Positions 3,101 to 37,412 of a stretch of 55,697 nt of DNA are shown here, piece after piece; within the stretch, counting starts at the first letter, position 1; each line of letters starts with the position of its first letter. The DNA lies in NCBI GenBank assembly GCA_051942245.1, contig JAVECL010000011.1:62001-117697 (forward strand), written 5' to 3'. The stretch is from Trypethelium eluteriae (Eukaryota). Under the pieces are notes generated by a model that saw nothing but the letters and a program-made list of their open reading frames with translations, was not told the origin of the DNA and did no database searches. Made by a program: the position numbers and the translations under genes.

Positions 3101-3402
3101 ATCCTAGGCCGACTCCATGGATAGAGATTGCCAGATCCATTCAAGATTTCTGCGGTCATGATACCAAGCTTGTCCCAATCTCTGAATGGGTTGACAAACT
3201 TCAAAGGTTGCTTAATGAAAGACTAGTTGACTTTCAGAAATTTCCTGCGCTAAAAACACTTAAGTTCTTCTATTTATTTGCTCATCACGGACCCATCTCA
3301 CGTTATAATACTCAGAAAGCTATGGCGGCCAGTGAGACAATGGCTACGTTAGAGCCAATCTCACCTGACTGGATGAGATACTACCTCGAAGCTGGTTTGT
3401 GA
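183..3402 (+). CDS. NRPS-like carboxylic-acid reductase (adenylation-thiolation-reductase), apparently frameshifted near 3035-3080 (possible pseudogene or sequencing error)
   Basis: A-domain motifs HSSGSTGYPKP, WRTKDLF and GRKDD; T-domain GLDSLQ; R-domain VLTGSTGSFG, HNAWKVDF and GYGESK. Intron donor GTGAGC at 480. The typical C-terminus (YFNVVNPRPTPW...EWVDKL...FPALKTLKFF...W) lies in another frame and ends at 3402. Confidence 0.85.
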
Positions 3403-3672
3403 ATTGAGTTATGATTCGAGCGCCATCTATCGATTCTCACGGAGCAAATTCTTGTGAACGATGATCTGATCAAGTGCCTGGGCATGATTGTATCAAAAAA
3501 TCCGCCAGAAATATGCGTGAGTCTCCTAGCTGTAATAGGGCCAGTGGATTTCTGTCATTGGCATTCATGAATTCCACTTGATCGAGCGCAGGGCGGACAA
3601 GTTGTACTTATTGGATAAGTCTAAGTGTGAACAAGTCTTGCTCCCAGTCCGAACATGCAGCACGCAGTGTAT

Positions 3673-4644
3673 CTATACGATTTTTAATGACCATTGCATC
3701 TCTTGAAGCTTGGGGTCCTTTAAAAGGCCTATTCTTAGATATTCAGGCATTGGTTTTACCTTGACCAAAAATTCGATTTCGTGCATTAAGCCTGCCTCCC
3801 GGATCGCTTCTTGCCAGAACTGGCGCCACGACTGCGGCGAATGGCACAATGCAGGCTCAATCTCACTGACCACGGGTATTTTGCATGGCTCTTTGCTTGT
3901 CGTGCCTAGATTAAGCCCTACCACCATTGTACCTTTTTTTGGGTTGAGAAGTTCCACCACACGGCTCACAGCACGTTTCTGCTTTGCTGCATCGAAGAGA
4001 TGGAAGAAGCTGCCTGTGTGTACTATGTCCATAGATTCTTTCAGCTCCGACCAGATCTTTGCATGATCATTGAGAACGTCAGCGGCTTGGAATCGAGCCC
4101 TAAACTGATATCCATTTGGAGGCATTGATTTGAGATTTCCACGACTATCAGGTCCATCATCGAACAATTTATAAGCCAGATCGAAATAGCCGCTTTCAAG
4201 ATCAACACCGATGCAATTCTTTGTATTGGCGCCATCAAAGGCGAGACGGCTGATATCCTGGCCAAAACAGCAGCCAAGGTCTAGGAATCTTGCGTCATGT
4301 TCAACCACTAAGCTCCGAACCTGGGAATATGCTGGATGTTCGGAGAGCGTACAGAGGAGAAAGCGAAGCATGCCAATGCATGGGTAAGGATAAACCTTGT
4401 AAGCTTCTTGCTGCTAGATTCAAGACATGAGAATGTGTCGCTGTATAGAAGGACAAGGATGAGAACTTACGACTCGTGCCACATGTGATGAAATTCTAGC
4501 GTCCGGTATGCAGCTATACTCTCGAAGAAGAAGACGCCCAGACGATGGTATATTCGCATCGACGTTGACTGTATCGACAAAAAATGACTGCAAGTAGCGC
4601 AAATCAATATGAGGCCGAGCAATAGCCTCGAAGTCTAGAGACAT
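3673..4644 (-). CDS. SAM-dependent methyltransferase, AusD/Trt5-like secondary-metabolism family
   Basis: ATG at 4644; intron 4414-4470 (GTAAGT...TAG) joins the exons in frame. Motifs YPYPCIGMLRFL, FLDLGCCFGQD and SFFHLF. Confidence 0.85.
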
Positions 4645-4973
4645 TTGACTTGCCAAGGTCTCAACCAACTTCTAAGTTGGATCGTATAAGAGATACTCAA
4701 GACTGTCTGAGGCAAAAAATGCTGGGGCACAGCACCAGCTCCTGAGCACGGAAACTTCAAAATTCAAAGTCATTCACGGGAACGCCGGACTTGCTTTTCT
4801 CTATGAACCGCGCCGCTCTCAAGAGCCGAGCTCACTTTCATATCTACACCCGACCAGTCATCTTCTCAAAACACAGTGCGCTAAATTGGGCTTACATACG
4901 AATTAAGCTATTGCTGCCCGAAATATGACCAGGTATGCACTGCGCCTCCTCTTTCATTCACCACTTTTGACTG

Positions 4974-5624
4974 TTGCCTGCAGCATTGCAGGCTCCCCAA
5001 TCAGCTTCACGATCGCCGACTCCTGAAGCTGCCCTTCATCGACAGGGTCGTACTCCACCAACGCCAGCTCAATTGCAAAATCATTTTCTTTCGCATCGTG
5101 TTGTCCTGGACTCAAATGGCGCTATTGCGATTGGCCTTCCATTGACGGGTGGCATTCTCATCAAGTACGTGAATGCGGTTGACCTAGAGCACCTGAGGGC
5201 ATCACGTAAGGCATCTACAGCTCGTCCCAACCCAAATATTCCATCCGAAGAAGACGAGTGGTGTACGAAGCTTCGATCCCTGGCACCGGGCTGGTACCGA
5301 AGTATCAGCGACCGGTACCAAACTTTGAACGACGACCGACCCAAGACAACGACAGAGGAAGAACAGGCATCCATAGGGTATCTCGACTCACCGAGATCAG
5401 GACACGTTGTGGTTGTTAGATGTGTAACTGGACAGATGCCTGCAGAGTGGGGTGCTTATAACAAGTGCCTCACTATGCAAGAGAGATGTGATGTAATGGA
5501 AGAATTTGGAGCGGATGTGTACGGCACAGCAGATGAGGCAGAGGAACTGAATGGACGTCACGAAGAGAAGATGAAAAGGGAGAGAGATAAGCTTGAGGAT
5601 GAATACGGCCCTTTCGAAGCTTGA
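4974..5624 (+). CDS. Hypothetical fungal protein, start unresolved
   Basis: A 216-codon open frame with protein-like composition (IGLPLTGGILIKY, EEDEWCTKLR, TMQERCDVMEEFGA). No in-frame ATG near the 5' end. Confidence 0.5.
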   Translation: MPAALQAPQSASRSPTPEAALHRQGRTPPTPAQLQNHFLSHRVVLDSNGAIAIGLPLTGGILIKYVNAVDLEHLRASRKASTARPNPNIPSEEDEWCTKLRSLAPGWYRSISDRYQTLNDDRPKTTTEEEQASIGYLDSPRSGHVVVVRCVTGQMPAEWGAYNKCLTMQERCDVMEEFGADVYGTADEAEELNGRHEEKMKRERDKLEDEYGPFEA

Positions 5625-5839
5625 GATACAGTCCGTATCGAAATTCAAAATTATGTGAGGCCCGAGGAATATGGCGCTAGAAAATTCGTAGCAGGGTTTC
5701 GGCATAAAGTTGTGTCCCGCTTGGGGATGTGCGTCATTCTAGACCCATAGATCCATGAATGTTTTTGCGGGGCAATTTTTAAGATGGGCGAACGTGAACT
5801 TCCCTCTCCTCGGCTGGACTCTTCTGCAGTACCACGCAA

Positions 5840-7657
5840 ATGGACAACTATGACCGGTGGCGCGACAATTCACCTCGCGGCTCGCAGAGAAGGAAGCTGA
5901 GCTTCCAGCCAACGGGATCATGGGTGCCACCGACTACAGAGCAAAAGCCGGCGGCACCATTCGAGGTTTCGAAAACAAAAAGGATTCGTAAGTCCTTCCT
6001 CACATATGTTCTAAGGCTTTCACAATGCTGATGATTGCGTCAATCAGTTCAGGTCGCTGTCGCCGTCGTGTATTGTCTCTTTGCCGCTGGCATCATATTC
6101 GGCTACGCTGCCCTCAAACCTGTTCTGATCAATGAAGGAGTCTACCGAGATCGTTGCACATCCGAAGAGTTGGAAAAAGGAGTCAGAGTATGTTACGAGC
6201 AGGAAATACGGCTGAATTTCATGTTCACGGTTGCTGCGTAAGAATACCTACACTCGAATATCTAGTATTTGGCAATTGCTGACGACTTCAGCGTTGCCAC
6301 CAATGTAAATGCTTTACCGGTAGGGACGGTTCTTGACCGCTTTGGCCCTCGTATAAGCGGCTTCGTAGGATGCTTCTTTCTTGCGCTTGGGGCCCTCAGC
6401 ATGGCTTTTGCCGATTCACTTCCTTTCGACGGATACATACCAGGATATCTGTTTCTTGCGCTTGGCGGACCGTTCGTATTTATCTCCTCCTTTCAATTGT
6501 CGAACACATTTCCGCGATATTCGGGCCTCATTCTTGCGCTCCTGACAGGTGCATTTGATACCTCATCCGCCATCTTTCTCTTCTACCGCTTAATATATCA
6601 AGCTAGCCATGAGACATTCACCCCGCGAAAGTTCTTCCTGGCATATCTTGCCGTCCCAGTCTGTATCCTTCTGGCCGAAATCTTCCTCATGCCCGCAAGG
6701 TCATACAAGACGGTCGGGGAATTGGTCGTTCAGGCCAAAGACGCAGATCCTTCTGCAAACTCTCATGACGAGTGCCAAACCCTCACTAATGGAGAGTCCG
6801 TCGATGATGCCGCTGTGGTTGATCCTGAGCAACAACACCACCATGATGCGGTCGATGAAGCCACACATCTACTTGGCAAAGATGCCAGCAAGCAGTCCAA
6901 GGCCGAGGAGCGGAAGAGGAATATATCCGGTGTTTGGGGTGCTCTTCATGGAAAATCGGCATGGCAACAGATCCGTTCTCCATGGTTCGTGCTCATTACT
7001 CTCTTTACGGTGATCCAAATGACCCGCATCAACTATTTCGTCGCAACTATCCGCCCTCAGTACGAATACCTCTTACACAGCTACCGCAAGGCGGTGCAAG
7101 TCAATACCTTTTTCGATGTCGCTCTCCCCGCTGGAGGTGTCATTAGCGTTCCCTTCATCGGTCTCATTCTCGACAATACCAGTACCCCGTTCGTACTGGC
7201 CGTTCTTGTTACTATCGCAGCCGTAATCGGCGTACTCGGTGAGATCGGCCAGATGTGGGCCGCTTACGCGAACGTGTGCTTGTTTGTCGTTTATCGCCCG
7301 TTGTACTACACGGCGGTGAGCGACTACGCTGCTAAAGTTTTTGGATTCGCTACTTTTGGGAAGGTTTACGGACTGATCATTTGCTTGGCCGGCCTCCTCA
7401 ATTTCATTCAGAGTGGCCTTGACGCTTTGACCCACGGGTTGTTTCGCGATGATCCAAGACCGATCAATGCCGCGTTACTGGTGGTCGAAGCTGTGGTGGG
7501 GGTCGCATTGGTTGGGTTTGTATACTGGAGGAGTAGAAGCATTGAGCGCGAGCGTTTGGAAGAAGAGGCTGAGGGTGCTACACAAGTTCTTATACCTGGA
7601 GCGGATAGGGAACAGGTGGAAAGGAGCCATGGACATGACACTTACGGTGTCAGTTGA
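5840..7657 (+). CDS. FMP42: FMP42-like MFS transporter (SLC43/LAT3-like)
   Basis: Introns 5988-6047 and 6238-6291 restore the frame. Motifs AAGIIFGYAALKPVL, VGTVLDRFGPR, LTGAFDTSS and KVFGFATFGKVYG; many hydrophobic TM segments. Confidence 0.85.
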
Positions 7658-8727
7658 ATGTCTCTCTTGCTGTTATTCGGCTGCCACACTTTTTGGACTA
7701 ATCGTTTCTTCAAAAGGTCTCGGACATGAATGGGAATCTCGTGATCATCTTTGCGTGGCGTTAGAAAGTTCTACTGCACATGATATCGATTGCGCAGATC
7801 AATCCGCCAGATCCAATTACTCTCCAAAAGGATTAAGTAGTACGTTACTCTATGCTCAAGTTCAGGGATCAAGCAAGAAATGGAATATCTTCGCCTACAC
7901 TTCTATCGTGTGAGACATAGTCAGCTGCAGTGCCCTCACTAGACATACCTTATGCTACGTAAACCAGGCATAATGGTCGGGCAATTGCAGACCACCTCTT
8001 ACAAGCCAGAGCCTTCTTGCATACAAAACTGACCCTAACTCGTTTCATAACATTGCGTCCAGTCCTACGCATGCTCGAGCTGAAAGCGCGATCGAAATCT
8101 TTACGTTCATCCTAATACGATTAAAGTAGATGGCAGACAAACTTCATCAATAACGGCGGCGATTTGCTTGGCTGTGGTTCTAGCGAAATCAAGTCTCGAT
8201 TATCCTTCACAATACTCCGTAGAGACAGTCATCGTTCCCATAGTTTGCAATCAAGCTTTTGTACTGCGCAAGCTCACCGCTTTGAGTCTGGTCTGAGATA
8301 CTTTGTTACTGTACTGTAGGTACCTTATCCCAGAGCGCATGCTGGGGTGCTGGCGTGGCTGGCAGAAAGCAATAGATCCCGGCGTCGATCTTAGCCTTAG
8401 GTGCAATCATCTCACGCCATTGCATCTTCATCTAACCTTACCCACAGTGATGCATAACTCATCGGAAACCTTACCTCAAAGATCCACTCTTGAGCTTATG
8501 CATGCAATGCACTTGTTGGTGGAGAATAAACTGTAAGCTAACTGACTCAAGCTTCAAGAAACTTCCGAAATGTCGCGTCTGTTTGAGGGGTACGTTTCCT
8601 CTTTGTTGTTCTGTGTAAATAGCCCACGACCTCCTTCCTTTCCGTTTCAGCGACTTTGTCGCATCTACTTTACATTTTTCGTTTTTGAGCGGCAGGTCAT
8701 TGGGCCGTAGAGCCATCTTGCTTCAAC

Positions 8728-10560
8728 ATGCGTTGGACACCGGTTTCCGGGAGCCCGCAGCTGCAGCTTCAAAGACACTTGACTCGACAGTCGAGTTCTC
8801 GTGGCATGCTAGCCGCTCGCTTTGCTAGACCCAAGACACATAACAATGCACGCATGCTCCATTTCCAAGGCCCAAGTTGGAGCGGGACAACTTTCAATCC
8901 AAATCTCAGCAGAAAGACAACTCCACGCTCACGTGCATGGGCTTTCCCAGTCGCTGCTTCTGCTTTAGCAATCTTTTCTTTCGGTCTCACTACTTATGCT
9001 ACCTCGCAGTCTCTTCATGCAGAGGCGCCGCCCGAAGAAAGCCTTCCAAAAATTCGATTTGCTGAAGTTCGGGAGCATGGTATTGGCGCCAAGTCAATCT
9101 GGGTCACCAGGGGCACCAAGGTGTACGATATCACGGATTGGATAGAGGCGCATCCAGGAGGGGAAGTCATTCTTCGAGCTGCTGGTGGATCCATCGATCC
9201 ATACTGGAAGCTTTTCACGATTCATCAAAAGCAGGATGTCTACGACATCTTAGAGTCCTACTTGATTGGTGTCATTGATCCGCAAGACCTCGTCAATGGT
9301 CAATTGCCTACTGACGATATTGATGATCCTTTTCAGACTGATCCAAAGCGTGATACACGACTCTTAGTGCACTCCAATCGCCCTTGCAATGCGGAGACTC
9401 CAGGCCCTCAGCTGAGCGCATTTATTACCCCGAATCCACTTTTCTATGTTCGCAACCATCTTTGGGTCCCGCAAGTTGCGGAACCCGAGGAGCACAAATT
9501 GACAATTGAGCTCGTGGACGGGACCGAGAAAATTTATACGTTGCGAGATCTTAGGGCAAAGTTTCCTGAGTGTAAGATCCACGCGACACTTCAGTGCAGC
9601 GGCAATCGGCGCTCACACATGAGCGCAACAAAGCATGCGACTGGTTTGCAGTGGGATGTTGGTGCAATCGGAACTGCAGAATGGTCCGGGGTCCTCCTTC
9701 GGGATGTATTGGCAGACGCTGGTGTCAATGTTAACCCGCACCCGTCGATTGATCCCGAGGAGAAGACCGGCGACGTCGTTCGGCATGCCCAGTTCATCGG
9801 AGCAGAGACATATGGCGCTTCAATCCCAATCTCCAAAGCTCTTGCAAGTGATGGTGATGTCCTCTTGGCTTATAGCATGAATGGAGAGCCTTTGCCCCGT
9901 GATCATGGGTATCCCCTTCGCGTCATCGTTCCAGGAACCGTAGCCGCCCGCAGCGTGAAATGGCTTTCTCGCGTGGTACTTTCGCCCGAAGAATCACCAT
10001 CGCAATGGCAACGAAGAGATTACAAATGCTTTGGTCCCAATGTGCAAGCCGCGGGTGTGAATTGGGATAGAGGCAAGAGTATCCAAGAAATGCCGGTGCA
10101 ATCAGCCATTACCTCTTTGCAAGAAATCAGCGGACATGTTCCGGAGTACATCTCTGGCCGTGGGAGAATCTATTGGTTGGACGATGACCATATCGCACTC
10201 GAAGGTTATGCCTTCTCTGGTGGCGGCCGCGAGATTGTGCGTGTAGATATTAGCACAGATGGAGGTCGCACCTGGCAACAAGCTGAACTCTTGGGAGAGA
10301 GTGATGGAAGTGGGCGAGATGGAAAAGGCGATGCGGCTCGCAAGGGAAGCAAATGCTGGGCCTGGAAGCGTTGGAAGTGTGACATTCCCAAGATGGATGC
10401 TGCTATCGGTGGTGAGTTCGTCGTCAAGGCGACGGATGAGAGCTACAACACGCAGCCAGAGAGCTACATGGCGACGTGGAATTTTAGAGGTAACTTGACG
10501 TCGGCCTGGCAGAGGGTGCCATACGCGCCAACCAAGGAGATCCGGGGTTTGGTACCTTGA
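8728..10560 (+). CDS. Sulfite oxidase (cytochrome b5 + molybdopterin + dimerization domains), probably mitochondrial
   Basis: b5 motif VYDITDWIEAHPGG; Moco domain FYVRNH, TLQCSGNRR and DHGYPLRVIVPG...ARSVKW; C-terminal WNFRG. Arg/Ser-rich N-terminal leader. Confidence 0.95.
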   Translation: MRWTPVSGSPQLQLQRHLTRQSSSRGMLAARFARPKTHNNARMLHFQGPSWSGTTFNPNLSRKTTPRSRAWAFPVAASALAIFSFGLTTYATSQSLHAEAPPEESLPKIRFAEVREHGIGAKSIWVTRGTKVYDITDWIEAHPGGEVILRAAGGSIDPYWKLFTIHQKQDVYDILESYLIGVIDPQDLVNGQLPTDDIDDPFQTDPKRDTRLLVHSNRPCNAETPGPQLSAFITPNPLFYVRNHLWVPQVAEPEEHKLTIELVDGTEKIYTLRDLRAKFPECKIHATLQCSGNRRSHMSATKHATGLQWDVGAIGTAEWSGVLLRDVLADAGVNVNPHPSIDPEEKTGDVVRHAQFIGAETYGASIPISKALASDGDVLLAYSMNGEPLPRDHGYPLRVIVPGTVAARSVKWLSRVVLSPEESPSQWQRRDYKCFGPNVQAAGVNWDRGKSIQEMPVQSAITSLQEISGHVPEYISGRGRIYWLDDDHIALEGYAFSGGGREIVRVDISTDGGRTWQQAELLGESDGSGRDGKGDAARKGSKCWAWKRWKCDIPKMDAAIGGEFVVKATDESYNTQPESYMATWNFRGNLTSAWQRVPYAPTKEIRGLVP

Positions 10561-13328: not shown

Positions 13329-14407
13329 CTTCGTAGGATAGCTCGCGATCTTAATACGCTCATGCACTTCTTGTGGGTGATCTGGGCAAAGGTGAGGGAA
13401 AACGACTCGTCACGTGAACCCAAAATCTATCAATCAATAATGCGTCAATGTAAAACCCTGTTTTCAAATTTTACATGATGACTTGCAAAGATGTCACCCT
13501 TATTTCGAGAAAGGTACAAATCTTTTTGTGTAGCATTTTCCAGTCCACAGATGTAGGAGGTTTCCCGCGCATGTGAGCGTATTGTGTAGCAGAACTTGAT
13601 GTCCCTGATAAGTTGAAGAAATCCTTGGAAAGGAAATAGAGTATAAGTTTCGACGACTGGCTGGGAACGTCCAGGGCTGCGGAGCTTTACAGAGGCTGCG
13701 GGGCAGATCAGCAGCATATTCTCAACCAATCATTTCCGCACCTCGCACCTTTTCAGAGGGCAGTTCATGGATAAACAAATCGAAAAAAATCGGAAGCCAG
13801 AATAGGCCATTTCTTATGCTCGAAGCTACAATAAAGACGCTATGCGCAAGCAGACACCCCCCTCAGGCCCCATGTTGCTGGCTACATGAAAGGAAGCAGA
13901 TGATACTCCCTTGTGCCGATCAAACACACACGGCAGTGGATAAATACCTTAGAGATCGGCGCTATGTGCCGTAGCGGCCGGGACGTCCGGGGAAGCAGGC
14001 TGAAGGCAGTACGGACCCTTGACAGATCTACACAACACCATAAGGTAATCACGAACTTTGGGATATTTAGGATAGAGACGGGGCCGGGGAAAGACCCGCA
14101 GTGAGTTTATCCAGGGTACAATTTCGTGTCAATATCACTGTTTTCGTTACATTAGCAAATCTGCTTGAGCTATTTTGCCGCCAAGTGTTTCGTAGATCCC
14201 CTCAATGTCTTCGAATGAGAAGCCATCGCGTCCATCTCGTCCGTATCATCCATTGGATAAAAGGAAGACCGGCATTGCTATTTGGGCGATAGTCTGTTCA
14301 ACACATTGTACTATATACGTCCAAATGCCAAGCCTTGAATCGAGTAGGTCTTCACTCTCTGACATTCCAATCCACTTGCATCCTTCCTAGTCTCCAATAC
14401 TAGCAAC

Positions 14408-15591
14408 ATGCATCTTGCAAACACCCTTGCGGTCGTAGCCGCTCTTGTAGGAGCGGCAATAGCTGTCCCAGCTCCTAGCAGGGCGACGATGAAAGAAACT
14501 TCGACAAGACTACGCCCCAGACAGGACACTTCGTCACCGTATCTGAATACTGCAGCCAAAGCCAAGGGCAAGCTCTGGTTTGGCTCAGCAACTGACACCA
14601 CAACTGCTGAAACCAGCGATGTCTCCTACATGACCATTTTTAATAACTCAAACATCTTCGGTCAAACGACCCCTGCCAATACGATGAAATGGGAATTTAC
14701 GGAGCCGACACAGAATAATTTCACTCTAAGTGCAGGCAATGAAACCATTGCATTGGCAAAAGCTAGTGGTAAACTTGTCCGGTGTCATAATCTGGTGTGG
14801 TCCTCGGAGCTCCCTAGCTGGGTTACAGGCGGCAACTGGACGAATGCGACATTACTGGCAGCTATGGAAAACCACATTACCACGCTTATTCAGGGATATG
14901 GCAGTAGCTGTTATTCCTGGGACGTCGTGAACGAAGCTCTCAACAGCGATGGTAGCTTTACTTCCAACGGTAAGGAAATCCAGAACTCTACCTTAATGTC
15001 ACTTGGCTGATGGTGATTCCAGTGTTCCTCACAAACATTGGCGAAGCCTATGTTCCACTTGCATACAAATATGCCACCGCTGCAGTTACTGCCACTGGAG
15101 CAGACATCAAACTCTTCTACAACGATTACAGTATCGAGGCGCCCAGCACGAAGAACACTGCTGCTGTCAATCTTGTAAAAACCATTAAGTCGTACGGCGC
15201 CAATATCGACGGCGTCGGCTTCGAGAGCCATTTCAGCACCTCGTATTACCCAACGACGACCCAACAAGAGCAGGCCATGGCTTCCGTCGCCGCGGAAGGC
15301 GTCAACATCCACGTTACCGAGCTTGACGTCGCATGTTCCAGCGTACCGTGCTCAACCGCAGATCTAGCCACACAAGCAACCGCATACTACGACACTATCT
15401 CCGCCTGTATGGGCACAACAGCATGCACCGGCATGACGGTCTGGGATTTCGATGATAAGTATAGCTGGATCCAGCCTAGTAGCAATGGCGGCGAAGGGAA
15501 TCCGGATCTGTATTACTCAAACTACACTCGGCACCCAGCCTATACAGCCGTCTATGAAGCAATTGAGGGGCAAAGCTGCTCTGTCTGCTGA
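14408..15591 (+). CDS. Secreted GH10 endo-1,4-beta-xylanase
   Basis: Signal peptide; TPANTMKW, RCHNLVW, WDVVNE (acid/base Glu), LFYNDY, VTELD (nucleophile) and TVWDFDDKYSW. Intron 14970-15022. Confidence 0.95.
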
Positions 15592-26171: not shown

Positions 26172-28057
26172 ATGGACCGGATAGAACGGTTGCTATCTCG
26201 GCCTACTGCCAAACCCTACCGAAGCCGTGACCTCGAAGCCTCTGAGACTCCGTTTTTGAATGCGCAGGGCCACCTCGATTTTGCGCCCGGCGATGTGGAG
26301 AATCCCAAAGAATGGTCTCGCCCCCGGCGATGGTACGTCACGGTTGTAGGAGTTACTCTCGTGGTCAACGCTACGTTTGCGTCTTCGAGTCCCTCAGGAT
26401 GTCTTGAAAGTATTGCAGATACTTTTGACGTTTCGGTGGAAGCAACGAATCTCGTCATTACACTGTTCCTTTTAGGTTACTGTTTCGGACCACTGTTCTG
26501 GGTATTTCGACTCTCATCCCTCCAGTGAGGTCTCCGTATATTGATTTCTTTTCTTAGGCACCATTATCCGAGTTTTATGGTCGAAGATGGCTTTTCTACC
26601 TCTCATTCACGGCCTACCTGGCTTTCAATTTCCTTTGCGCATTTGCAAATAATTTCGGTGCTCTTCTGGTCGGACGTTTCTTAACCGGAACGTTTGCAAG
26701 TTCTGCTCTTTCGAATGCGCCAGGCGTGCTTGCCGATATTTGGGGTCCAGTAGATCGAGGCAACGCCATGGGCTTATTCTCTATGATGACCTTCATTGGT
26801 CCATCTCTTGGACCTGTAATATCTGGATTCCTGCAGCTGAAGGAGGACTGGCGTTGGAATTTTTACGTCCTCCTCTGGTTAGCTGGTGCAACTGAGATTC
26901 TTATGTTCACAATCCCAGAGACCCTCCCTTCAATCGTTCTGCTGAACAAAGCGCGTCGTCTACGAGCTCTCAAAATTCCAGGTTATGAAAATGTTCAGGC
27001 TCCCGTGGAAGCTACGGATAGAACGCTTGCTGGCATTTTCAAAGTTGCCCTCTTGCGGCCTTGGCAGATCCTATTCGACCCAATCTCATTCCTCGTTGCC
27101 ATTTATGTGGGTGTCGTTTACGCCCTACTATACATGCTTTTCACCATCTATCCCATCGTTTTCCAGCAAAAGCGTCACTGGAATGCTGGTGTCGGAGAGC
27201 TGCCCCTCATTGGCACTATTGTCGGTGCTGTCATGGCCGCCGGCATTGTTTTCTACAACTCTTCTCGTGACGTGAAGCGCATGCTAGCCGGTCATACCCA
27301 ACGTCCAGAAGATAGGCTGCCATTAGCTATGCTCGGAGGTGTTATGTTTGCTATTACCATGTTCTGGTTTGCCTGGAGCGGAGAATACAACAGCGTACAC
27401 TGGATTGTTCCAACGTTGGCAGGCGTGTTTTTATCGTGCTCCATCTTGTTGATATTCGTCGCCTTTTTGAATTACATCACTGACACATACCTAATGTTTG
27501 CTGCATCTGCGCTGGCTGCTAATACGATCATGAGATCGGCTTGTGGCGCTGCAGCACCGCTCTTTACTCAATACATGTGAGTGCCTGCGTGCATGAATTC
27601 CTAAATTTTTACATCAGTACATTTCTTCGCAGTCGGTGCTAACCTTTTCAGGTTTGATGCTTTAGGCGTCGGCGGTGGTGGTTCCTTGATCGGCGGTGTG
27701 GCAACATTACTTGCGCCAATACCATTTATCTTTTACTGGAAGGGCGAAACCATCCGTCGAAGATCTAGGTTTGCCCCCACGGAGAACAAGCCGAAGCAAG
27801 AAGACAAGCCTGCGGACGACGAGCAGCAGCAGGAGCGCGATATATCCGATGACCTCGAAAAGGACGAGACCAGCCCATCGCGTCAAGTGACTACTTCTAG
27901 TGAAAGCGATCTTTCCCGAGTGAGAAGTCGTGAGGTTGAAGCAGGACAGGAGGGCGCTAGGACGGATGACGGAGAACTCAGAACCGCTACTGGAGAAGTC
28001 GTTGAAACAGAAAAAGATTTGGAGAAGCATCAAGCATATCGTAAAGAGACCAGATGA
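26172..28057 (+). CDS. MFS drug:H+ antiporter (DHA1 family)
   Basis: DVENPKEWS, GPLFWAPLSEFYGRR, GPSLGPVISG, PETL, RPEDRL and ASALAANT. Introns 26502-26557 and 27577-27651. Confidence 0.93.
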
Positions 28058-28531: not shown

Positions 28532-30843
28532 TCATTGCGCAGTCCCATTACTACCCTCCTCTTTCTCTCGCTTATGTTTCGTCTTCAACCCATCCCCAGG
28601 AGGCTGCAGAGCCTGCCATTTCAGTCCCGAAAATCCCAAAACACAATTAAACATCTCATCTCTACACCCTCTAGAGGCCACAAGCTCAGTGATTGGGCCA
28701 TCCGTCCAGTGAAATTGCAACACTTCCATCGTAGCCGCTCGCCCTATCCGCGATTCTGAAGATTGTTTTCGAATTTCCACGAGCTCCATATACGACCGTG
28801 ACCATCGTCCACCGTGACCAGGGAAGGAAGAGGAAAATCTCAAGCCAGAGCCAAACAATACAAGTCGACCCAGACTCGAATGCCAGCGGCAGCGAAAAGA
28901 CAGTATCCCTTCGCCACCAATGGCCGACGTGGACGAACTCGCGGTCTCATATGAAGCTGCCGAATCGTCGGAGTCATACCCAGTAGCAGCCTTCTCCCCT
29001 GTCGACGTTGTTTTCGTGATAACCGGAAGCTCCATACTCCCACTGTATTCCGGACCAGCTGGGTTGATCTTTTCAGACAGGTATTTCTCCGTAACGCGAT
29101 GTCCAACAATGGCAGCGCGTGCATTCTGTGCCTCGCTACGGAGATAGCGGAACGCCCATTCGGCATGCGTCGGTATGTCCCAAACAGTCCATTTTATTGG
29201 CGAGACTGTGTGTCGAAATTTGGGGTATAAGCTTGAGATGGGCCTGGAGAAGAAAAAGTATATTATGCCGATCCATTCCAGTATCTTGACACTGAACTCC
29301 ATACTTGTAAAGTGTCCGACGAGTATGCAGCTTATCAAGAATATCAGAGTACACGTGGTCATCCATGGATCTTTCCAGTCGTAGCAATTTTGATAGATTT
29401 CTAACAGATCGGCCAAATCACCAATCTGAAGCTGAACGATTGGACCGATTTCGTCGAGCAAGGGGTCTAGCCACTTGTCGTTTCCGTGCTTGCTGATAAG
29501 TTCCGATAGCCGGAGAGCTCGCGTGCCTCGACTGATTGCTCGTTCATAAGATAGTCGGATTTCGTCAATGGACTCCGGGCGGACACGACGCCGCACCGTG
29601 ACGAAGATTAGGTAGGAGTACTGAAAGGATATCAGCTGGCTGACAACTGCTTCGATCTTGTGAAGAGAGATTACCAGGAATGTAACCATATGATTGTAAT
29701 ACCACACGGTCAGCATGATTGCTAGCCATTTACCCGTCTTTTGGGGATCCTCCCACCGATAAACACGCCGAACGTTAAGGATCCATTCTTGCCAAGGTGC
29801 CGATACCATGACGAGGCGCTCCACGTGCCGAACAAGGGTATCTTGGTTGAAAGGTAATGTATTAAAATCGTCAATGTATTGAGAAGTAAAGTCTTGGCTG
29901 TAATAAAGCATGATCTGTTCAAGATCAGAATTAGTAGCTTGATCTGAGCTCATATCGGGAAGAAACAACATGCCGCTCCAATATAACGTTCATAGCGAAA
30001 TCTTCCAGTAGTGCCATCCTCGTTCCGATCATAATAGTCGGATTGTATGGGGAAATCAAAGTGCTGTTTCGGTACCACACGCGCTCGAAAGATATGCCTG
30101 CTTGTGATCCAGGCTACCCGTGCCTTTTCGCGATCTGATTCTAGATCATGCATCTTTTGCTCGAGCCTTTCACATTCGCTCTCCCGATCGGATGAGCCCT
30201 CAGCCGACGATGCTGCTCTAGACGACTGTACCCGAACCATCTCTTCGTGAGTATCCAGAAGTTGAAGGTCCGCTTCAGGCGACAGGTAAGGATGTTCTGG
30301 GGTAGCCAACTTTTTGGCAGCTTTTGCTTTTAGAGCACGTCTCGGGTGTGCTACTGCATGAAGGGTACCTTTCGTCGTTCCGAAAGTAGCATCGATGGTA
30401 TTGCTCACAGAGAAACCCTCCTTTCGAATGAGTTGCTTTGGACTGAATGCAGGGTTTTGCTTGACATCTTGAACGATGTCATTTTCTGCAAGATCTTCAT
30501 GTTCACTTTCTTCCTCAAGATCTGTTTTATCCCGCTCTTTCTTCGAGTCCTTCGATGTACCGTGGAGCACTCTCTTTGCCTTGGCTTTGGTCGCTTGGCC
30601 AATGTTTCGGACTCGTTGTTTAGGGGAGACTTGACTGGACATGTCATTACTGCGTCGACGATGCTGCTGTGATGTTTCGTCGTCAGACTCGTCGGTCATA
30701 GGACTGCGCAAATCGACTGCCTCTGTGGAAGTTGCATCAGCCTTTCGGGGCTGCTGGGGAAGGTGTGAGCCCGAGATTGGCTGCAGTTGCACCTCAATAC
30801 GATCCTCATCGTGGACGCCATCAATGTAGCTGGTATCCTGCAT
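28532..30843 (-). CDS. Conserved fungal membrane protein (DUF3292-like with putative C-terminal PH/GRAM-like region)
   Basis: Two long ORFs joined by a GC-AG intron at 29915-29973, plus an in-frame intron at 29621-29674. Motifs QDFTSQYIDDF, VERLVMVSAPWQ, VYRWEDP and WDIPTHAEW. Confidence 0.75.
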
Positions 30844-31744
30844 TGCCGCCTTGTAGGATCGGATGGATTCATGGCAAATTATGCAGCTTGACCGGGTTAA
30901 GCCAACAATCGGCTACAGAGCAACGCCGGAATGCTCTGACCGCATGTGAGTTGATAGAGCAACACGGTGAAGCGCAAAGATGGCAGCTGAAGGTAGGCCA
31001 TGCTCGTTGCCTACGCCGACAAACCATGGCCGGTTTACCCTACGCGTTCTCGGGTGGTGATGATGTTGGTGGCGATTGTGATAGGATAGCCTGCTCAATG
31101 ACAGCATTACAGCGATCTACACAGGTATTTGTAGAGCAAAGCTAGTCTACGCTAGGTAAAGCCGCCGCATACTTATCGATCCGTTGCAGCGTATCATGCA
31201 ATGCGCGCCCCTTTATCGATGGGAGCCGCGTTGCAGCCACTGACGCGCATACTGGTACTTTGGGTGATTTGCATGTGATGGCGTCTTGCTACCTCTTCAC
31301 GTATTTCATGTCTCTATCCCTCAAAAACACATGTTCGACACTAAATGATGAGATGCAAGGCCCGGCCGCCACGGCTGTACATGAAGTCCTCGAATCAGTC
31401 ACCGCGCCCAATGCGCGACAGAATGTAGACAGCCACCCTGTTAACGTTGTAGCCATACTTTCGCCCAAGATACTACAATCCGATAGAGTTACTGCAGATG
31501 CGAGTCAGTTGCGCCGCATACACTCGCTATGTCGGTGAAAGTCGGCGCGGTGCCATCGCGCACGCCGCATTCGTTAACGGCGATTTGTCCGCAGTCGGTC
31601 CTTCGATAGAAACCCACTTCAGATTTCCCGCAACAACTTACATACTCGCCGAATTACACCACCCGCTGCGACTCACTGTCGCTAATTTACAGTGAGGCTG
31701 ACCGCAATCCAACGAGTGCAATCTCATCAACGTCTTCGTAGGTC

Positions 31745-32164: not shown

Positions 32165-33472
32165 TGTGCAACCCTTGGGGCCTGGACAAGCGGAACCTCC
32201 ACGCACATGAGGCAACGGACACTTTTAGGTGCGGTTCAAGCTCTACCGAATCGAGACCTACTGCGAAAAGGTGGCTCGACGACTGAAAAGACGGAGGAGT
32301 GGCACGCGTCAGGGCGGGTTTACCCAGGCGTCTGAGAGTCGAAGTTTGTTAAGATTTGGGGCCAGCGCGCATGAGAGCATCGAAAAGGAATAACAATGTC
32401 CTACAGCATTCTCGGACAGAGTTTCACAGACAACCTTGACGGTTGCAGATTATACTCAACCAGCCGAGTCCCCTTGGACAACGCCTCGTTCTGATCATCC
32501 CTTTCTTTTCTCGAATAGCCAGAATCGATGTCTTTCAATCGGCAGTACAATGCGAAGACCATCAATATTCACGAGCATATATCGCCCAGTAAGCAGGTCG
32601 CCCTTTATATCGCGCCAGACGTTTAGCGCGATTTCGTGAGAGTAACGTCGGTGAATATCGCACTGTGAACAACATCTGACTTCGGCGTCGACCAGACTGG
32701 AGAGTGAAGTCATCCTCTATCACCCGTCTGATTAGCGCTTAGCCCTAACTGCAACCGTCATTTGTTCAGCTCAGAAGTATCGATCGGCGTAGCGACGTTG
32801 CATGAATCGTCGTTATACTGCAACTACAGAGCTGATAACGGCCTCAAAATATGACGTTGAGGCTTAAATCTCAGACACTACCTTGCTATGACTGTTAGGA
32901 GTTGTCAGCGCTTGAAGGTGGGATGATAATAGAAGCGTCTTGTAGTGCTAGCAAAACGTAGCTTCGCGCGACCTAGGTGGTAGGCGGCAACGCCAAAGTA
33001 GTTCCAAGCTGAGATACGTCGTAAGGATCCACAGATGGGTTGAGTACAGCGTTCATACAGAATGAAGCAAAAGCAGGCGTACAGACAACCTCGAGACCGT
33101 GCTCAAGACAAAGGACCTATAAACTCGCTCGCTACGAAGGGTGGCTCGCAACAGAGGGACGGACGTTATATCTCTATCCGTCAACAATATATAGTCCACA
33201 CTGAGTGATACACATATGAGGTTCAGACGACATACAGTCACAGGAGCCGAGCCTGGTGCATAGAAACATCCTCAGGCATGTAGGCAAGTACTGCAGAGCA
33301 GGCAAACGTCTTCAATCATCTCATCTTCTCTTGAGACTATGCTTGGTCCACAAGCACGACGTGTCATTTCTCGTTGAAGGTTTATTTATTCTACAACAAA
33401 CGCCAGTACATGAAGCCCAAATTCCGTCAAGCATGTCATTTTATCCATCCCTACGTCGTTTGCAATTGTCGG

Positions 33473-34757
33473 TTAAGCTACAAGAAAACCGTAAGCATTT
33501 TTCGATGGATAAGACTTCACCAGAGTCATGGGACTTACTAGAAGGGCTGTTGTTCAGCGAGCTCGAGGCACTAGCATCCCCTGGATCAGTGCTCTGTAGA
33601 GCAGCGAGAATGCCAGCGAGCGAGTTGGGGTCCTGACGTTTCTGGTTTGCCGAGCCCATCAAGGAGCTAGAAGCACTCGCATCCCCTGGATCGGTACTCT
33701 GGAGGGCAGCAAGGATTCCTGCGAGCGAGTTCGGGTCCTGACGCTTCTGGTTTGCCGAGCCCATTAAGGAGCTAGAGGCACTCGCATCTCCGGGATCAGT
33801 ACTTTGCAGAGCAGCAAGGATACCTGCGAGCGAGTTGGGGTCCTGACGCTTCTGATTTGCCGAGCCCATCAAAGAGCTAGAAGCACTCGCATCCCCTGGA
33901 TCGGTACTCTGGAGGGCAGCAAGAATGCCTGCGAGCGAGTTAGGGTCCTGACGCTTCTGGTTTGCTGAGCCCATCAAGGAGCTAGAGGCACTCGCATCCC
34001 CCGGGTCGGTGCTTTGGAGGGCAGCAAGAATTCCAGCAAGAGAATTGGGGTCCTGTTGACGCTTCTGGTTCGCAGAGTTCATCAAGGAGTTGGAAGCACT
34101 GGCATCACCTGGATCGGTGCTTTGCAGAGCAGCAAGAATTCCAGCAAGAGAGTTGGGATCCTGTTGCCGTTTCTGGTTTGCAGAATTCATGAGGGAGCTC
34201 GATGCACTAGCATCCCCAGGATCAGTGCTTTGCAGGGCAGAGAGGATGCCCGCCAAGGAATTGGGGTCCTGGCGTTTGTCCAGCGATGAAGCTTCGGCAT
34301 CATCGAAGTCCCTCTCAGAGAGCTCTGCCAAGATGTCCGCAGCGCTCTCGGCAGCTTCTATACAAAGTTCAGATTCTGATGCAAAGGTCTAATCTTGGGT
34401 GTCGGCCGAGTACTTACCACGACGCTCTAATTCGGAAGCAGGGTCAGCGTCAGCTTCGACTGCGGATAAGTCTCGCAAGATCTGGTGAGCAGTCTCGGCC
34501 ACTAGAAAACTGATTAGCTACCACCTATAAGGCATGATCATTGGATAAAAGGACTTACCGCGGCGGTGGAGGGACGAGTCTGCAGATGCATCGCTCACAT
34601 CCCTCTCTGAAAGAGACTGGAGGACTTCGGCTGCGTCGTCTGCTCAACTGTGAGTCCACGTTGTCGCGATACGAAATCTGGCAGTATGCTCACCAACTGC
34701 AGACACAGCTCCCAAAGAAGCCGCGAGGGCGAGGAAGACGTGAATGTTGAATTTCAT
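33473..34757 (-). CDS. Secreted KEX2-processed repeat protein (KEP), putative peptide precursor of about 350 aa
   Basis: Exons 34694-34757, 34559-34639, 34418-34501, 33539-34357 and 33473-33477, all joined by canonical phase-1 GT-AG introns. Signal peptide MKFNIHVFLALAASLGAVSA; ten related units separated by RR/KR. Confidence 0.88.
33540..34271 (-). repeat. Coding tandem repeat: 7 copies of a 105/108-bp unit, (Q)QDPNSLAGILAALQSTDPGDASASSSLMGSANQKR
   Basis: Directly visible in DNA and translation. Differences between copies are mostly synonymous; the last copy has a different end. Confidence 0.98.
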
Positions 34758-34901
34758 GTTGTAATTAGTTGCAAGGAAATTGAGAACAATAAATTTGTAA
34801 GATCTAAATCCGAAGGAGTGAAATGAATTAAAGAGGAAGTGACCAGCACAAAAATCAAGACGTTCCGGACAGCTCACCGAGCCGCATCAACGGCGATCGT
34901 G

Positions 34902-34907
34902 CTTATA
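34902..34907 (-). promoter_or_regulatory. Possible TATA element (TATAAG) of the repeat-protein gene
   Basis: CATATAAG on the minus strand about 145 nt upstream of the ATG at 34757, followed by a pyrimidine-rich leader. Confidence 0.3.
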
Positions 34908-35525: not shown

Positions 35526-36689
35526 TTAGCTCCTTTTTGCAGCATCTCGTTCGTTCTTCGTAGTCTTGACTCGTTGTTTTTCATGTTCAACGATATCCTC
35601 CCAATGGATACGGACCCATTCCAATACATTTTTTTCTCCCATCTCAGCGACGGCAGTCGAGAAGGAACACTGGTAGTGTGGTTCCATTGCGGGTTCAGAA
35701 CGTACGCTTAGGCCCTCTCCAGAGGACAGAATGGTCCATCTTTTCATACTACGCATCGCAAGATTGAGCTTCTCGGAATTGTCGAGTGGAATTGTCGAAG
35801 CAATCTTTGACATAATCTCTTTCTCGGCATTTGCCTCTTGCCAGCGTTGCAAGCGTTCGTTGTAGACGCTCTGGAGATTGAACTCACTGAGGGCCTCCTG
35901 AAGGACTTGCAACCTGCTTGGTACCTGTTTCTTAATCCAAAGATGCTGATTATTGGGAACCCATTCGTCCAAGAATCGTTTGAATTGTGGTCGCTTTCGT
36001 AGACGTTGTCTATCATTTGAATTTTGCCTTTGTTCACAATTGCTACCACTGAATAGTCTCCCACCTGCAATCCACGCAAACATTTCATTCTCGGTGTTAA
36101 ATCCCGCACCAAAACGTTTCTCATCCAGACCCATAAACTGCATAGTAAGGACAGGGTCGTGTGTCATGAATAGCCTGCTCTCCTTGGCATTATGGACCTC
36201 GATTTCCGGGATTCTAACATGTAGGCCCCGATCAGAAGCTGTCAGACCAAGGTCACGGATCGTCAAGCCAATAATTTGCCAGAGATCACCATAAGAATTC
36301 ATAAAAAACCCCCACTCCAGATCGCCTTGACGACATGTTGAGATATCGAGCTGGGCGAATGGCACAGACGTATCTTCAAGCTCTGACGGCAACTTCACCG
36401 CAAACGACATCGAGTCGCCATGACTCACATGGCGCTTCGCCTGAAGTAGGGAGGCAATTTGCTGGATAGATAAGCCGCGGTGACCGAAGTGTTGTTCAAC
36501 GAGGACGTCAATGTCCCCATAGTCGAGTTTCTCGGGGGCTTCAGGCGGAACGGCAGCCTTGATAAAATATGGGTTGAGTACTTGAAGAAAATGATCCCGA
36601 AACTGCTGGTAACGAAATGGTGACATGCGAGGAGTCTCGATTGGTGGCTCACCACTCGGTCCTGGCTGAGCAAAAGCTTGGCCGCCCAT
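35526..36689 (-). CDS. Uncharacterised protein with Pol-beta-like nucleotidyltransferase signature
   Basis: Intronless, ATG at 36689 (MGGQAF). EAPEKLDYGDIDVLV supplies a DxD motif, FAQLDI a candidate third Asp; also YGDLWQIIG and LGLTASDRGL. Confidence 0.7.
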   Translation of the reverse strand: MGGQAFAQPGPSGEPPIETPRMSPFRYQQFRDHFLQVLNPYFIKAAVPPEAPEKLDYGDIDVLVEQHFGHRGLSIQQIASLLQAKRHVSHGDSMSFAVKLPSELEDTSVPFAQLDISTCRQGDLEWGFFMNSYGDLWQIIGLTIRDLGLTASDRGLHVRIPEIEVHNAKESRLFMTHDPVLTMQFMGLDEKRFGAGFNTENEMFAWIAGGRLFSGSNCEQRQNSNDRQRLRKRPQFKRFLDEWVPNNQHLWIKKQVPSRLQVLQEALSEFNLQSVYNERLQRWQEANAEKEIMSKIASTIPLDNSEKLNLAMRSMKRWTILSSGEGLSVRSEPAMEPHYQCSFSTAVAEMGEKNVLEWVRIHWEDIVEHEKQRVKTTKNERDAAKRS

Positions 36690-37412
36690 AGTAGACTGCA
36701 GCGGGATTGTGTAGTATTCAGAAAAAGAGAGAGGATTATAGAAACGGACGCTCTTGAGAAAATCCAAGGTTTAGGCTCACTTCGATCATCCTCACATGGT
36801 TAACGGCAGGTGCAAACGGTGCGAGTCATTCTTGTGGTCAACAAACGGAATGCCGCAGGAAGCTTTGGGAGTCATCCAATCTTACCATCCTCAGGCCCCA
36901 ACCGTCCTCTCGGCGTTAATACCCAATCCTCTCTTTCGAGACGAAGCCCAAAGGTCGGAGGATCATGTTCACAACTCGTGCGACAGAGTTATAAGAATGA
37001 TATCCTTTCCTCCGTCTTCGATCACTCGATGTGGAAAGGAAGGCGTGGAACCTGAGAATAGTATGTAGTCAACGTCGCCAGGTGGAGTTCCTCTAAAGCA
37101 AAATTCAACAGCGACGAAAGAGCCTACATGAAGAAAGGCAAAAGAGGTATTGCCGATGGTGTGGGTGATGTGATACGAGGGTAGCCCCTGGCGGCTATGG
37201 CGGGGAAGCTACCTACATACGGAGGACAGCTCCAAACCCAGGGAATTGATCCTGGCAACACTCATATACGAGCCTTTTCCCAGCCCAATTGTGGACGCAG
37301 CTCACCGAGTCCCTCCCTCCATCGGTGATCGCTTGCTATGGCAGACCTCTAGACGGACGCAGCCCAGCTTTTAGCTTCCCTTTGTCTCTCTACATTTAGC
37401 TTCATCACCACA

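Follow-up and report, generated by a model that had tools for sequence, protein, structure and literature searches.

Which product is made from a gene whose protein begins like a secreted precursor and then repeats one unit again and again, each time behind a pair of basic residues? The question is raised by a locus of Trypethelium eluteriae, on the minus strand at 34757..33473 of a stretch of 55,697 nucleotides (nt) that we analysed as a whole and call the window (assembly GCA_051942245.1, contig JAVECL010000011.1, positions 62,001 to 117,697). We consider it probable that this locus is a 350-amino acid (aa) pre-pro-polyprotein gene of the KEX2-processed repeat protein (KEP) type, whose linear acidic peptides would be released by Kex2 and may act on a partner of the fungus itself. 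By sequence-level criteria the gene is a new type within the known KEP class and an expanded member of an unnamed family that crosses fungal classes, called here the SILAAL/NNPEDA family. An earlier note on this DNA had described a spliced gene with a signal peptide and seven units preceded by KR (Lys-Arg), and the spliced structure, the signal-peptide-like start and the seven KR-preceded units are all present in our model.

The locus is a real, intact gene of a filamentous ascomycete. A scripted splice joining 34757-34694, 34639-34559, 34501-34418, 34357-33539 and 33477-33473 yields a reading frame of 1053 nt, with 350 codons before the TAA, in five exons separated by four GT-AG introns, and the span 33473-34757 named by the earlier note coincides exactly with this five-exon model. 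The features, in the order of transcription, are the following:

34838..34849, minus strand: conserved element GTGCYGGTCACT, which ends 80 nt before the ATG
34694..34757, minus strand: exon 1, the ATG and the signal-peptide-like 21 residues, ending in phase 1
34640..34693, minus strand: intron 1, 54 nt, GTGAGC..CAG
34559..34639, minus strand: exon 2, degenerate unit 1 (aa 22-48) with RR at its end
34502..34558, minus strand: intron 2, 57 nt, GTAAGT..TAG, with a branch-like CTAAT
34418..34501, minus strand: exon 3, degenerate unit 2 (aa 49-76) with RR at its end
34358..34417, minus strand: intron 3, 60 nt, GTAAGT..TAG
34272..34357, minus strand: start of exon 4, degenerate unit 3 (aa 77-105) with KR at its end
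33539..34271, minus strand: seven main units (aa 106-349), six of them KR-terminated and the last reaching the exon end
33478..33538, minus strand: putative intron 4, 61 nt, GTAAGT..TAG, called from the sequence only
33473..33477, minus strand: exon 5, the last two bases of the final codon and the TAA

All four introns run from GT to AG, with GTGAGC or GTAAGT as donors and lengths of 54, 57, 60 and 61 nt. The listing of open reading frames (ORFs) contains a minus-strand frame from stop to stop at 33441..34388, with 315 open codons, which holds the repeat. If intron 1 is left unspliced, the frame stops soon past the hydrophobic N-terminus (ORF 34644..34886); of the two AG acceptors near the end of this intron, the frame remains open with that at 34640 alone. 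Introns 1-3 are in phase 1 and introns 2 and 3 come directly after dibasic codons, therefore exons 2 and 3 each correspond to exactly one unit. Regarding intron 4, its retention would add around 40 unrelated residues, with Cys among them, up to a stop at 33441, and the intron is plausible as predicted. We also read a TATAAG at 34902-34907 (minus strand), around 145 nt before the ATG, and an AATAAA at 33385-33390 (minus strand), around 83 nt past the stop; both positions would fit a compact transcription unit.

The protein itself has the parts of a processed precursor. Its first 21 residues are signal-peptide-like, with Lys at position 2 and a Kyte-Doolittle mean over nine residues of up to 2.56, and V-S-A, which places small residues at -3 and -1, precedes residue 21; the other members of the family begin alike. 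Tandem Repeats Finder detects an array at 33559-34271 with a period of 105 nt, 6.7 copies, 84% matches and 0 indels (score 840). Cutting the protein at RR or KR produces ten units, three degenerate and seven nearly identical, separated by nine boundaries that are RR or KR in 9 cases out of 9. The seven copies of the earlier note are thus correct for the main units, but the three segments encoded by the upstream exons are degenerate copies that it had overlooked. Degenerate units 1 and 3 align locally to the main unit with scores of 46 and 43, and not one of 2000 shuffles reaches either. Degenerate unit 2 is tied to the array through these two, since its scores against units 1 and 3 are reached by 26 and 1 of 2000 shuffles respectively, whereas its score against the main unit is reached by 521 of 2000 and is not significant. 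A six-frame scan found the unit nowhere else in the window. The repeats are overlain by plus-strand ORFs as well, which are a side effect of the repetition.

Each of the seven main units opens with QDPNS or QQDPNS directly after KR. Six of them have 35-36 residues and end in KR (residues 106-317), and the seventh, of 33 residues, has a different end and runs into the stop. Lys and Arg occur in the main units only as the boundary KR pairs. Apart from these pairs, K, R, C, H, F, W and Y are all absent from the main unit, which confirms the acidic composition that had been proposed, with 3 Asp and free of Lys, Arg, Cys and aromatic residues. Furthermore, the whole mature protein has no Cys, Trp or Tyr. 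The commonest predicted product after removal of KR is the 33-mer QDPNSLAGILAALQSTDPGDASASSSLMGSANQ, with a net charge of -3, a calculated isoelectric point of 4.05 and an unmodified mass of 3175 Da. Four of the predicted products are identical 33-mers and the other three main-unit peptides are close variants of it.

The differences among the copies tell how old they are. Over the 21 pairs of main units the summed proportions of synonymous (pS) and nonsynonymous (pN) differences are 0.614 and 0.032, a ratio of 0.053. Units 3-6 are identical in their residues save one extra Gln in unit 3, while each pair carries 6-15 synonymous differences. When the first 28 codons of the seven units are compared, the 28 variable columns are distributed as 3, 2 and 23 over codon positions 1, 2 and 3. 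The high pS, the low pN and the 23 of 28 variable columns at third positions mean that the copies are old and have been selected as protein; they have not been homogenised by recent gene conversion. Purifying selection in this frame is strong over the whole unit, the Ser-rich tail included, and the repeat exceeds what chance or recent duplication would leave.

We then come to the relatives of the gene. A word-based search with exon 4 (P0001) returned a single match, P0002, with an E value of 4.9e-17 and 46% identity. With phmmer against 1.84 billion representatives, 115 proteins were found at E<=0.001, 14 at E<=1e-10 and 0 at E<=1e-30, and 25 of the 115 were examined individually. Among these 25 there were 15 short fungal proteins, of 104-300 aa, with 2-5 units carrying SILAAL and NNPEDA and mostly delimited by KR or RR; most of the 15 begin signal-peptide-like and some are truncated or mis-started. 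The other 10 were longer helical-repeat proteins or otherwise unrelated. The nearest relative among the matches is P0004, with 54% identity, and P0002 and P0004 are near-duplicates. A search that started from the family member P0029 gave 17 proteins, and one from a profile of 12 sequences gave 46. Searches of the ESM Atlas gave no usable match with P0001, and with P0118 only scores below 0.9, which are leads and no more.

All the named members are called "hypothetical" or "uncharacterized" in the NCBI and UniRef names. They come from Aaosphaeria arxii, Coniothyrium glycines, Alternaria dauci, one species of Phaeosphaeriaceae, six of Apiospora and two of Diaporthe, and the family spans Pleosporales, Apiospora and Diaporthe, in at least three fungal orders. 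The JGI automatic names of three rows (Lon protease-like, Zn-ribbon-like and FadR family) were discarded, as they are unsupported by the sequences concerned. When 8 family members were compared with Pfam, no family reached its curated cut-off. On exon 4, six Pfam families appeared at E<=0.001 (XPC-binding, DUF6510, DUF7548, DUF937, APH and CYSTM), which we rejected as noise summed over the repeats because no single stretch passes alone.

In order to place the window unit among these proteins, a hidden Markov model (HMM) of the unit was made from 106 distinct units of 37 family proteins, the window protein being excluded. This HMM matches all seven main units at 19.4-21.6 bits, whereas 1000 shuffles of the protein peak at 6.9. 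The core pattern of the family is I-L-x-A-L, then 3-4 residues, a small or polar residue, P, x and D-A; the window unit has this pattern, and the columns L, A, L, P, D and A that are invariant in the family alignment (A1) are all found in it. Compared with a typical family unit, the window unit has two extra residues ahead of the hydrophobic stretch, and T-D-P-G-D-A-S replaces N-N-P-E-D-A-A. With 7+3 units the window gene has the largest array seen, since the 37 family proteins hold 2-5 units each. By its sequence, then, the window unit belongs to an unannotated, conserved, cross-class fungal family. The homology search with the repeat unit that the earlier note had proposed thus ended in an unannotated family and in no characterised one. 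The word "undescribed" that the note had used for it holds insofar as the family is unnamed and has no Pfam entry, but its members were already in the public sets as hypothetical proteins of at least three fungal orders.

Is the repeat cut? For 85 units from 26 proteins of the family, we surveyed the stretch of 16 residues that precedes the core. A dibasic pair is present in 64 of the 85, a single Arg in 9 and no basic residue in 12, 10 of these 12 being first units, just after the signal peptide. In the 64 dibasic units, Gln stands directly after the pair in 36, one to three X-Ala or X-Pro dipeptides come before the Gln in 9, and 19 have other arrangements. As described in PMC9769878, alpha-factor precursors carry a Ste13 signature of X-Ala and X-Pro dipeptides behind KR. 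Many Pleosporales-type members have a final KR with three more residues behind it, an understandable arrangement if the last peptide needs the same C-terminus as the others. Regarding the distance from core to core, it goes from 28 to 74 residues (76 spacings), and such a variable spacing suggests beads on a string and would be difficult to accommodate in a regular stacked solenoid. The KEP architecture that had been proposed for the window gene is thus a layout of the whole family, with Gln after the dibasic site and with Ste13-type dipeptides in some members.

By analogy with alpha-factor precursors and other KEPs, we suggest the following course of events. The signal peptide would be cleaved off in the endoplasmic reticulum (ER). 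Then, as in the alpha-factor/KEP pathway, Kex2 would cleave after each RR or KR in the late Golgi, a Kex1-type carboxypeptidase would remove the basic residues and the linear acidic peptides would be secreted. The units are therefore most likely, on this analogy, cut into small acidic linear peptides. Cyclisation would turn the N-terminal Gln, at least in part, into pyroglutamate: according to PMC9769878, KEP peptides with N-terminal Gln are seen as pyro-Q in Coprinopsis, and spontaneously in Pichia, and their pyroglutamyl forms are detected in Agaricomycetes. In the prediction, NSLAGILAALQ of each peptide forms a short hydrophobic helix, TDPGD a turn, and the second segment is rich in Ser and Ala; this Ser-rich tail could be O-mannosylated. 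Finally, the peptides may have a conserved partner in the fungus that makes them (a receptor or the cell surface), as opposed to a fast-evolving target in a host or competitor. What points to a self-directed partner is that the 20-residue core and the upstream element have been kept from Dothideomycetes to Sordariomycetes.

The structure predictions bring in a different explanation, namely that the protein stays mostly uncut as a secreted helical-repeat or flexible acidic protein of the matrix or cell wall, in which the dibasic pairs are loop residues. AlphaFold2 of exon 4 (alignment of 27 rows) gave a helix-turn-helix per unit, the first helix spanning N-S-L-A-G-I-L-A-A-L-Q, and no fixed overall fold, with a mean predicted local distance difference test (pLDDT) of 64 and a predicted template modelling score (pTM) of 0.18. 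The model of P0029 (36 rows) is more favourable to an uncut protein: its pLDDT is 72 and its pTM 0.37, 29 residues reach pLDDT >=90, and its helices extend from the second half of a unit through KR into the next one, so in a folded protein the sites might be harder to reach. The unit also resembles bacterial HEAT-like hairpin repeats of a similar period, and Ser-rich tails, to judge by their composition, could carry O-mannose. Nevertheless, the two pTM values are 0.18 and 0.37, and Foldseek with the P0029 model found 0 matches in the PDB at E<=0.001. The core spacing of 28-74 residues, the Gln right after the pair in 36 of 64 units with Ste13-type dipeptides before it in 9, the terminal KR three residues from the stop in many members and the restriction of Lys and Arg to the boundary pairs in the main units also speak against this explanation. 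We therefore regard the uncut protein as unlikely.

The helices that cross KR in P0029 are nonetheless one of several points that weigh against a cut precursor with self-directed peptides, and the others should stand beside it. Some boundaries of the family are monobasic (9 of 85) or have no basic residue. The phmmer matches include weak ones to bacterial HEAT-like or STAND repeat proteins (P0003, P0005, P0013, P0025, P0042 and P0079), which means that the unit resembles a helical-hairpin repeat. The two glutaminyl cyclases of Neurospora are ER-resident, upstream of Kex2, according to PMC5241404; if Kex2 uncovers a Gln in the Golgi, this residue may thus escape them and cyclise only spontaneously. 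The pyroglutamate of the earlier note has a precedent in KEP peptides, and at the predicted N-terminus it is plausible but not assured. The word-based and phmmer searches brought up no close orthologue carrying this same unit. The exon joins of the window gene, above all intron 4, are predictions from the sequence. The gene order seen around several relatives (described below) is not shared by the window gene. Finally, the self-directed function is drawn from conservation and from nothing else; it is the weakest step of the explanation, and we give it less than even odds.

The bacterial look-alikes just named are long NTPase or HEAT-like repeat proteins with a similar period, with a hydrophobic helix, T-D-P or D-P, and D-x-A, and their E values go down to 5e-24 because of summation over repeats; the resemblance is probably a convergence of helical-hairpin repeats. 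The 4 long phmmer matches, of 600-1800 aa, that were examined are bacterial-looking, with an NTPase and helical repeats, and were likewise set aside as look-alikes and not relatives. Among the 10 longer or unrelated proteins mentioned above, several look bacterial, with an NTPase domain and then repeats of a hydrophobic stretch, T-D-P and D-R-A.

If the precursor is cut, as we prefer, one may still ask what the peptides do, and one answer is that they are surface-active, amyloid-like coatings of aerial hyphae or spores in the manner of the Ustilago repellents. This is a sub-case of the processed precursor. The Rep1 pre-pro-protein of Ustilago maydis is cut into around 11 peptides of tens of residues, and these 11 peptides form amphipathic amyloid fibrils, as described in PMC3133707. 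The window gene shares with it the many copies per precursor, a unit of around 33 aa and a hydrophobic ILAAL stretch. However, the amphipathic helix that the earlier note had proposed did not hold up: the best 11-residue hydrophobic moment of the 33-mer is 0.29, a value that 1464 out of 2000 shuffled versions of the peptide attain. The helix has Leu and Ile on one side and Ala and Gly on the other, so it is divided into hydrophobic and small, not into polar and apolar. The net charge of -3, the lack of aromatic residues and the presence of Ile as the only beta-branched hydrophobic residue (there is no Val) also speak against a repellent. Rep1, moreover, belongs to a basidiomycete and its peptides are amphipathic amyloid formers, whereas the moment here is at chance level, a comparison made by description only. 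A prediction of a four-copy complex of the 33-mer scored 0.02 against a mark of 0.32, which is evidence neither way on self-association. A repellent-like coating thus seems improbable to us.

Ece1 of Candida albicans, the candidalysin precursor, is also a polyprotein delimited by KR (PMC6339444). The window units differ from those of Ece1 in being nearly identical to each other and anionic. Ece1 peptides have around 30 aa with a hydrophobic helix, no two of its units are alike, and the peptide that acts as the membrane-lytic toxin has a basic end.

The dikaritin precursors, such as UstA and PhomA, are a further comparison, because the KEP architecture is common to ustiloxin-type precursors, and one could propose that the locus encodes the precursor of an enzymatically modified, dikaritin-like RiPP (a ribosomally synthesised, post-translationally modified peptide). 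A DUF3328 gene does lie near 22% of the catalogued KEPs according to PMC7329392. In the window, however, we found no DUF3328/UstYa or other peptide-tailoring enzyme among 25 large ORFs, and none among 30 of the 62 ORFs of at least 75 aa between 26 and 42 kb (the remainder overlapped the gene or longer ORFs, or had already been scanned). The same was true of 59 of the 104 flanking ORFs of at least 130 aa at 10 homologue loci, where the ORFs of the family genes, L009 and L012 were left out. The unit lacks Tyr, Phe, Trp and His, so it has no aromatic residue to cross-link, and at 33 aa it far exceeds the known core lengths of RiPPs. The earlier choice of a linear peptide, and not of a dikaritin cross-linked through Tyr, is supported by these points: with no tailoring enzyme among the ORFs scanned, cyclised RiPPs are probably not what the gene produces, and a precursor of this kind is very improbable.

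Could the gene encode the alpha-type mating pheromone precursor of the fungus? Precursors of this type (MF-alpha, ppg1 and ccg-4) are alike in their pre-pro layout with a signal peptide, a pro-region and KR-delimited repeats, in Kex1 trimming, and in the X-Ala or X-Pro dipeptides that separate KR from the start of the peptide in some family members. A language-model lookup with P0118 also put an MF_alpha cluster at rank 4 with a score of 0.83, which is a lead only. Nevertheless, exon 4 and the 8 family members scanned have no Pfam MF_alpha match, and the peptides of the window are of 33 aa, acidic and non-aromatic, without Trp, while alpha-pheromones are short and aromatic, of around 9-13 aa. 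We find this explanation hardly credible.

Among the closest known systems are the KEPs in general (Le Marquer et al. 2019, PMC6339444; Umemura 2020, PMC7329392), whose layout is the same: after a signal peptide come tandem units of nearly identical sequence, with dibasic Kex2 sites at all boundaries. The unit of the window is unlike the cores EDYXI, DADAATXYV[A/V]D, YVW[G/A][G/S], SPPHKT, QKLKVD and XSDW that Le Marquer et al. give in PMC6339444. KEPs are extremely diverse, with 838 types and 2560 singletons according to PMC7329392, so that a new type is expected and not surprising. The unit motifs were not found in the supplements of PMC7329392 and PMC6339444, but the Umemura tables give accessions and not sequences, so this says little. 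KKY37113.1, a truncated model of 91 aa and the only member that could be compared by accession, does not appear among the 9 entries for Diaporthe ampelina in Table S2 of Umemura, a table of accessions only in which other members may be listed. Text searches of the literature by unit motif, locus tag and accession returned nothing relevant. The statement of the earlier note that this is not a characterised peptide is in agreement with all this, as neither a descriptive paper nor a Pfam family was found.

Relatives also share the structure of the gene and a sequence upstream of it. A metagenome scan gave 15 loci coding for family members (L001-L015). Of the three inspected, L004 and L005 have a signal-peptide exon ending in phase 1 followed by a GTAAGC...CAG intron, placed as intron 1 of the window gene. 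The third, L001, is 97-99% identical to L004 and is without exactly that 60-nt intron; it is also without a second GT..AG stretch of around 51 nt, some 860 nt upstream. A contig derived from a transcript, or a processed copy, would show this pattern, which suggests that a member of the family is expressed and spliced as modelled. The comparison supports the intron calls of the relative and not those of the window gene itself. One repeat unit is also absent from L001 when L001:1-1570 is compared with L004:477-2258.

Regarding the upstream element, GTGCYGGTCACT has a single match in the window at <=1 mismatch; around 0.5 matches are expected per 55.7 kb. It is exact, once each and on the strand of the gene, in 9 of the 15 homologue loci, and allowing <=2 mismatches gives 13 loci with the element 44-92 nt upstream of the ATG (L001-L005, L007-L011 and L013-L015). 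The element extends as GTGCYGGTCACT(TC), often after a CTTGTAAT-like sequence. It could be a transcription-factor site or a mark of the transcription start site.

Around the gene, the window has a 414-codon ORF at 35526-36770 (minus strand), a NAP-domain gene, a GFA-domain ORF and a gene at 28.5-30.9 kb. Neither 35526-36770 (minus strand) nor 28532-30912 (minus strand) matches a Pfam family at E<=0.001, and the latter has weak reticulon and PRT_C rows only, below the cut-offs. The gene order seen in L008, L010, L011, L013, L014 and L015 consists of an Asd-4-domain (GATA-type) gene, an ATP-synt_C proteolipid gene, the family gene and an ankyrin-repeat gene; it is this order that the window gene does not share. 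In two loci of this Asd-4/ankyrin subgroup a Sulfotransfer_4 gene is close by. When the 15 loci were compared by tblastx with 20-48 kb of the window, the only match was the major facilitator superfamily (MFS) transporter of L004, 35-56% identical in pieces. This gene (L004:3073-4731, minus strand) converges on the repeat-peptide gene at around 1 kb, and the MFS gene of the window (26286-27577, plus strand), 6 kb from the gene, is likewise convergent. We considered the similarity as synteny and judged it probably generic.

Farther away in the window there are an NRPS-like reductase (350-3124, plus strand; AMP-binding, AMP-binding_C_3 and NAD_binding_4), a methyltransferase ORF (3673-4413, minus strand) and another MFS transporter (6266-7657, plus strand), so that 350-7657 is possibly a small metabolite cluster. 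A gene with cytochrome-b5 and molybdopterin oxidoreductase domains, of the sulfite-oxidase or nitrate-reductase type, lies at 8689-10560, and a GH10 xylanase, as two ORFs separated by an intron, at 14363-15591.

KEPs are common in fungi, but a product or role is known for very few of them; in Fusarium graminearum, six deletions of KEPs had no sexual phenotype (PMC10589705). The gene described here is an unusually clean test case, since its products can be predicted exactly, the whole unit is selected and the core is conserved across classes, and the conserved upstream element is a handle for finding the regulator and the co-regulated genes. We would add a bolder idea, which we hold to be doubtful. 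The SILAAL/NNPEDA family might be an unrecognised class of fungal peptide hormones: linear peptides, N-terminally blocked, of around 30 residues and present in many copies per precursor, with genes switched on through GTGCYGGTCACT as a dedicated conserved promoter element and with a conserved receptor in Dothideomycetes and Sordariomycetes. If that were true, the family would supply a candidate ligand set for orphan fungal G-protein-coupled receptors, and the window gene would be its most expanded member seen. If the peptides are not signals, this is one more catalogued KEP type; if they are, they would represent a new class of ligands in fungal cell-cell communication.

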